NCBI RefSeq assembly: GCF_003334765.1
Contig: NZ_QOWT01000006.1
DNA length: 64,000 nucleotides
Direction: 5' to 3' (one strand)
From: Escherichia coli
GTDB taxonomy: Bacteria; Pseudomonadota; Gammaproteobacteria; Enterobacterales; Enterobacteriaceae
The notes below the pieces were generated by a model. That model made no database searches and was not told where the DNA came from. It saw nothing but the letters and a program-made list of their open reading frames with translations. This document shows positions 14,315-15,260 of this stretch, one piece after another (the first letter of the stretch is position 1; each line of letters begins with the position of its first letter). Both the position numbers and the translations under genes were made by a program.

Positions 14315-15260
14315 ATGATGAATAATAAAGTCAGCTTCACTAACAGCAATAATCCAACCATCTCTTTGTCTGCAGTGATCTATTTCCCTCCAAAATTTGA
14401 TGAAACCCGTCAGTATCAGGCAATTGTGTTATCTCACCCAGGTGGGGGCGTTAAAGAACAAACGGCCGGAACCTATGCCAAAAAACTGGCGGAAAAGGGA
14501 TTTGTCACTATTGCTTATGACGCATCTTATCAAGGTGAAAGTGGCGGCGAGCCGCGTCAGTTAGAAAACCCATACATTCGTACTGAAGACATCAGTGCCG
14601 TGATTGATTACCTGACAACGCTTTCTTATGTCGACAATACCCGAATTGGTGCGATGGGAATTTGTGCCGGTGCAGGATATACAGCCAATGCTGCAATTCA
14701 GGATCGCCGCATCAAGGCCATCGGTACCGTTAGTGCGGTCAATATTGGTTCGATATTCCGTAATGGTTGGGAAAACAATGTGAAATCTATTGATGCCCTG
14801 CCATACGTTGAAGCGGGTTCAAACGCCAGAACCAGCGATATTAGCAGCGGAGAATACGCCATTATGCCACTGGCACCAATGAAGGAGTCCGATGCGCCGA
14901 ACGAAGAACTGCGTCAGGCCTGGGAGTATTACCACACCCCTCGCGCGCAGTATCCAACAGCACCGGGTTACGCTACTTTGCGCAGCCTTAAGTTACGCTA
15001 CTTTGCGCAGCCTTAACCAGATTATTACCTATGATGCTTACCATATGGCGGAAGTGTACCTGACTCAGCCGACGCAGATTGTGGCGGGCAGCCAGGCAGG
15101 GAGCAAATGGATGAGTGACGACCTGTACGATCGAGCATCAAGCCAGGATAAACGCTATCACATTGTTGAAGGCGCAAACCATATGGATCTTTATGACGGC
15201 AAAGCCTATGTGGCTGAAGCAATTTCAGTATTAGCTCCGTTCTTTGAGGAAACTCTGTAA
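14315..15260 (+). pseudogene. ycjY: ycjY alpha/beta-hydrolase (dienelactone hydrolase / S9-like), disrupted by a 25-bp tandem duplication causing a frameshift
   Basis: Two overlapping ORFs (14303-15016 frame 2; 14892-15260 frame 0) are halves of one gene; deleting one 25-bp copy restores a single ORF of 306 aa from MMNNK. Confidence 0.75.
14967..15016 (+). repeat. Perfect 25-bp tandem direct duplication (2 x gttacgctactttgcgcagccttaa)
   Basis: Copies at 14967-14991 and 14992-15016 are identical; premature TAA at 15014-15016 lies in second copy. Confidence 0.9.

Follow-up and report, generated by a model that had tools for sequence, protein, structure and literature searches.

A 25-bp tandem duplication in ycjY very probably represents a natural, circulating loss-of-function allele of Escherichia coli

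The ycjY gene in the stretch of DNA analyzed here (64,000 bases of an Escherichia coli contig, referred to as the window) very probably represents a natural, circulating loss-of-function allele. The gene contains two identical, adjacent 25-mers (14967-14991 and 14992-15016; GTTACGCTACTTTGCGCAGCCTTAA), recognized both by direct reading and by script, and the identical allele was found in 53 (~1%) of the 5,236 complete E. coli genomes in which ycjY is present. We propose that one mutational event would have created a second, adjacent copy of 25 bp within codons 218 to 226, so that translation would meet a TAA in the second copy and yield a product of 233 amino acids in which the N-terminal core is retained, as is the nucleophile elbow. 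The allele would have arisen on a K-12-like haplotype (phylogroup A type) and been passed on vertically in a widespread lineage, in which the dead gene would keep decaying; its loss may be neutral or mildly beneficial. The features of the locus are listed in Table 1.

Table 1. Coordinates of ycjY, its 25-bp duplication and the neighboring features in the window
Feature	Position	Strand	Remarks
pgrR (ycjZ), LysR-type repressor	13278..14177	-	divergent from ycjY; intact in the window
pgrR promoter-like site TAGACC-18-TATCAT	14211..14240	-	pgrR/ycjY intergenic region; consensus scan
ycjY pseudogene, alpha/beta hydrolase	14315..15260	+	946 nt, 921 nt when intact; PGAP "frameshifted" in identical alleles
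Truncated ORF	14315..15016	+	225 native residues plus aberrant tail KLRYFAQP = 233 aa; GICAG (Cys117) kept, His281 motif absent
25-bp unit, copy 1	14967..14991	+	only copy in K-12, VR50 and ~99% of E. coli
25-bp unit, copy 2, inserted	14992..15016	+	which of the two copies is "new" cannot be told
Premature TAA in the original frame	15014..15016	+	from translation; ORF list has 14303..15016
Out-of-frame remainder	15015..15260	+	native codons 226-306 (NQIITYD...FFEETL) plus stop, including GANHMDLY
ymjD, 21 codons	15260..15325	+	coordinates transferred from K-12, 0 mismatches
ymjC, N-terminal remnant of NAD-dependent dehydratase	15331..15513	+	PGAP pseudogene fragment 15331-15468
mpaA, murein tripeptide amidase, intact	15595..16323	+	334 nt past the natural ycjY stop, 578 nt past the premature stop

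Tandem Repeats Finder described the duplication with a period of 25, 2.0 copies, 100% matches and a score of 100, which bears out the perfect repeat at 14967-15016 reported in the initial annotation, and a scan of periods from 10 to 100 over the 64,000-base window retrieved it as the sole perfect tandem duplication. The bases bordering the repeat (G on the 5' side and C on the 3' side) do not prolong the 25-mer, leaving the junction without microhomology. A hairpin was sought in the ancestral, one-copy DNA, which folded no better than shuffled versions of it (z = 0.28). A CAGC/CAGC pair separated by 25 bp does exist, but it would yield a duplication unlike the one observed. These three results lend no specific support to an origin by slipped-strand mispairing through microhomology or a hairpin. 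Of the "natural slipped-strand null allele" put forward initially, the natural null allele stands, while the slipped-strand mechanism finds neither the flanking microhomology nor the hairpin that would back it.

Since 25 is not divisible by 3, the duplication shifts the frame and generates a TAA in the second copy. The ORF that starts at the ATG at 14315 (MMNNK) comprises 233 codons followed by the TAA at 15014-15016, and the last 81 codons plus the stop run on in the +1 frame up to the natural stop at 15258-15260, in agreement with what had been read from the sequence at the outset. Script translation after removal of one 25-mer gave a single ORF of 921 nt and 306 amino acids from MMNNK, and the length given for the K-12 protein in the initial annotation was confirmed by its gene, which measures 921 nt with one copy of the unit. 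The allele is thus a frameshifted pseudogene, its frame being broken with respect to the intact orthologues and its early stop removing conserved residues.

The identity of the gene as ycjY, already suggested in the initial annotation, is established by the RefSeq annotation of identical DNA and by the repaired protein, which is identical at 306/306 residues to PDB 5XB6, deposited as "Uncharacterized protein YcjY." The repaired DNA showed no mismatches along the 921 positions of K-12 MG1655 b1327, the intact gene that corresponds to this structure and that differs only in that the 25-mer occurs once and the frame is open. Its location is also that of ycjY, divergent from pgrR, 5' of ymjD-ymjC-mpaA and near mppA and ycjG. 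The protein matches the Pfam families Peptidase_S15, DLH and Abhydrolase_1 (residues 36 to 287) and, once repaired, has a nucleophile elbow, GICAG, at residues 115 to 119 (Cys117) as well as the motif GANH281MDLY. Its Pseudomonas homologue PA2218 (PDB 2HDW) conserves G-I-C-x-x-G and G-A-x-H-x-D-L-Y. In the alpha/beta hydrolase fold, the catalytic histidine comes after the last beta strand, and the repaired protein has both the G-x-Nuc-x-G elbow and the C-terminal histidine, whereas the 233-aa product lacks the histidine motif. Judging from the fold, Cys117 in the elbow and the His281 motif would play catalytic roles. The fold and the conservation of these motifs indicate that the 233-aa product is almost certainly inactive as an enzyme, because the histidine motif and the C-terminal strands and helices fall within the 81 residues lost.

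To evaluate the distribution of the allele, a 250-bp query centered on the duplication was compared to complete E. coli genomes, and those with ≥99% identity were considered carriers. All non-carriers showed ≤95% identity, as a 25-nt gap would cause, and single-copy genomes amounted to about 5,183. With a synthetic three-copy query, no three-copy allele was found among the 5,236 genomes. The 53 carriers, which answer the survey of other genomes that the initial annotation had called for, were obtained from humans, chickens and pigs, from one dog, one crow and one opossum, and from cucumber, lettuce and wastewater on several continents, and include NCTC strains and ML35. The exact 233-aa product, including the aberrant tail, is listed under GenBank protein accessions and is present on no fewer than 1,000 public contigs. 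In all the carriers inspected, PGAP labels the gene "alpha/beta hydrolase, frameshifted," so the allele is an ordinary one whose frameshift public annotation already reports. The RefSeq/PGAP pseudogenes C1I23_RS12155 (ML35), BY40_RS14805 (O157:H16 98-3133) and FS611_RS07645 (RM10410) are identical to the window along the 250-bp stretch that contains the duplication and share with it the 946-nt span and the context, pgrR divergent from ycjY followed by the dehydratase remnant and mpaA. The allele itself is the same in the three, and what sets these genomes apart from the window is no more than a handful of SNPs or structural changes in the vicinity that are unrelated to it. A literature search for the ycjY duplication allele or the 5XB6 structure retrieved nothing specific.

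Alignment to reference genomes, also proposed at the outset, showed that both K-12 MG1655 and VR50 have a single copy and match the surrounding sequence without mismatches. After subtracting one copy, the window had no mismatches to K-12 MG1655 in the 7,001 bp from ycjF to pgrR and was identical to VR50 at all 19,975 positions. The best non-carriers, VR50 among them, align over exactly 19,975 bp of a 20-kb query (4967-24966), along which some 0 to 5 SNPs distinguish the carriers from the window, as estimated from bit scores. One local K-12-like haplotype is shared by all the carriers examined, including RM10410 and IAL7252, which rank lower over the 20 kb and in which the haplotype is unchanged but broken by unrelated structural changes. 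Carriers and non-carriers were also interleaved at 0 to 5 SNPs per 25 kb, both in 25 kb further along the window and in an unlinked 25-kb core region of the carrier SHP24, and none of these regions, the 20-kb haplotype included, has SNPs that tell carriers apart from the non-carriers nearest to them. The most economical reading would be that the allele arose once on a K-12-like background and was then inherited vertically, although a single origin in which one copy was occasionally lost again by precise reversion, or a spread by recombination, could also have produced this pattern.

The structural changes seen in some carriers are of different kinds. In RM10410, an element with a tyrosine integrase, a DNA primase, an Icd-like protein and an SSB (P4-like satellite or integrative element; 410-7984 of the extracted locus) is located directly past pgrR, where other strains have mppA. 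In IAL7252, which has an IS-associated deletion reaching from fnr into mppA, an IS-type "integrase core domain" gene (6746-8075 of its locus) takes the place of fnr, uspE, ynaJ, ynaI and most of mppA, and this strain appears to be devoid of the global anaerobic regulator FNR. In O157:H16 98-3133, pgrR is annotated as frameshifted (1413-2311 of its locus, 899 nt instead of 900), which could be either a real second lesion or a homopolymer sequencing error.

Some carriers show further decay of the gene. In VE-F10, PEC399 and OZ121069, ycjY measures 1,002 nt due to a second perfect tandem duplication, of 56 bp, at gene positions 441 to 552 (9789-9900 in the VE-F10 locus), the unit of which is equivalent to 14755-14810 of the window. 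The two insertions together add 81 nt (25 + 56), which brings the downstream frame back, yet there are stop codons between both lesions, and PGAP describes the gene in these genomes as "frameshifted; internal stop." Another variant among carriers has an additional S75R change. Both the out-of-frame duplication with its internal stops and the S75R variant are indicative of relaxed constraint. In this, the allele resembles the ordinary, strain-specific frameshift pseudogenes that short tandem duplications cause in E. coli, which likewise affect a non-essential gene through a small insertion or deletion, are inherited clonally and decay further. Its distinctive trait is the lesion, a clean tandem duplication of 25 bp that lacks microhomology, as opposed to an IS insertion or slippage in a homopolymer.

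Among the alternatives to a natural null allele, the one that survives best, although it seems very improbable, is that the gene can still be read, either through a reversible switch by slippage that would affect ycjY and perhaps ymjD/mpaA, or through +1 recoding at CCU-UAA-C, which would give full-length YcjY with an 8-residue insertion. Perfect tandem repeats are known in general to be lost precisely, the identical 20-kb haplotypes of carriers and non-carriers are compatible with reversion, and off-states could be selected, overexpression of ycjY being toxic and leading to filamentation (PMC3614548). However, with one or two copies per genome and none with three among the 5,236 genomes, the locus contains no variable tract, and the junction has neither the microhomology nor the hairpin mentioned above. 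Simple-sequence contingency loci likewise have a tandem repeat in the coding region, the frame depending on the number of its copies, but ycjY has two states only, lacks a multi-unit tract and gathers secondary lesions in its off-state, and a phase-variable contingency locus was rejected given the copy numbers of 1 (about 5,183 genomes) or 2 (53). As for recoding, a +1 shift at CCU UAA C would exactly restore the native frame, but no Shine-Dalgarno-like stimulator can be read 5' of the stop. A programmed +1 frameshift like that of prfB was also discarded on this basis and because, in the three carriers with the 56-bp duplication, internal stops lie between the start codon and the CCU-UAA-C site, leaving the downstream frame unprotected. 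The acquisition of this out-of-frame duplication indicates that there is no selection for a readable frame. It is highly improbable that the duplication would act as a reversible off-switch of the PgrR-controlled murein-peptide locus, silencing a hydrolase whose excess blocks division, or that low-level +1 frameshifting would take place at CCU-UAA-C.

The other two origins that had been considered initially retain next to no credibility. Short tandem duplications can in principle come from mis-assembly, but a second 25-mer added by an assembler or polisher to one true copy is ruled out for practical purposes by the identical allele in 53 complete genomes sequenced independently in different laboratories and on different platforms, by the exact product on at least 1,000 contigs and by the sub-lineage that bears a further mutation on top. 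Similarly, a mutation acquired in the laboratory during domestication or storage might be suspected from the presence of the allele in ML35, a classical laboratory strain, and from a haplotype identical to that of K-12, but K-12 MG1655 itself is single-copy and intact, and the many hosts and countries among the 53 carriers, with fresh isolates from animals, humans, vegetables and wastewater on several continents, dispose of this option just as firmly.

The natural loss of ycjY does not seem to be restricted to this allele. Other independent truncating alleles encode products of 155 aa (112 contigs), 127 aa (92 contigs) and 81 to 82 aa; the first is a frameshift after residue ~125, and the second a disruption after GICAGAG. 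Partial forms of YcjY occur in Shigella sonnei too. In addition, a 250-bp probe over this part of ycjY found no match in 190 of 5,426 complete genomes. Because of these independent inactivating alleles and of the genomes without a match, the data suggest that in nature ycjY is either dispensable or slightly costly, and that it has been lost repeatedly. Given the filamentation caused by its overexpression, one might speculate that losing the gene is mildly favorable.

The gene order in the window is mppA and pgrR (the latter on the minus strand), then ycjY, ymjD, ymjC and mpaA on the plus strand, followed by ycjG, tpx and tyrR. The primary work on PgrR is that of Shimada et al. (Genes Cells 18:123, 2013). 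The initial annotation had placed ycjY at the head of a PgrR-repressed ycjY-ymjD-ymjC-mpaA operon, and the gene order of K-12 agrees with this, as do two published sources, one listing ycjG, ycjXF-tyrR and ycjY-ymjDC-mpaA in the PgrR regulon (PMC5934670) and the other tabulating ycjY-ymjDC and pgrR as a divergent pair with constitutive promoters (PMC3946193). In the window, the support for the operon consists of the gene order and of the hexamers retrieved by the scan at 14240-14211, which match those published for the constitutive promoter of pgrR (PMC3946193), while co-transcription and repression come from the K-12 literature. A scan for promoters and terminators between ycjY and mpaA gave sites no more numerous than in shuffled sequence, a result that says nothing on an independent mpaA promoter.

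Early termination might also have consequences downstream. The ATG of ymjD overlaps the natural stop of ycjY (TAATG at 15258-15262), and ribosomes stopping 244 nt early would lose the putative coupling into ymjD through this sequence. The untranslated stretch before mpaA would grow from 334 to 578 nt, which could favor Rho-dependent polarity. From these features, a lower expression of ymjD or mpaA in carriers is plausible. The mpaA gene was intact in the carriers examined. In the interval between ycjY and mpaA, ymjD (its start overlapping the ycjY stop) and ymjC (60 codons, with the Rossmann-type N terminus MKNVLILGAGGQIA...) are what is left (15260-15513) of a gene for an NAD-dependent dehydratase that has been deleted there, and these remnants are common to K-12 and the other strains examined.

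The allele marks a widespread K-12-like E. coli lineage naturally devoid of YcjY, an uncharacterized hydrolase in the neighborhood of murein-peptide recycling. ML35, NCTC strains and many animal isolates are thus natural ycjY knockouts, isogenic at the locus with VR50 and K-12, and comparing the two sets of strains could help to probe the function of YcjY and the effect of early termination on ymjD/mpaA. Beyond this bookkeeping the allele is of little importance, although it provides a convenient lineage marker.

No complete RefSeq genome was identical to the window between 30001 and 55000, the best match scoring 46156 bits versus the 46167 of a perfect 25-kb self-match, and because of this lower score the source isolate is a close relative of IAL7250, HSP425 and SHP24 rather than one of them. 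The sole Rfam family above its gathering score in the window was the small RNA McaS/IsrA (RF00115; 118 bits), located at 1616-1711 on the plus strand in the abgR region, as in K-12.
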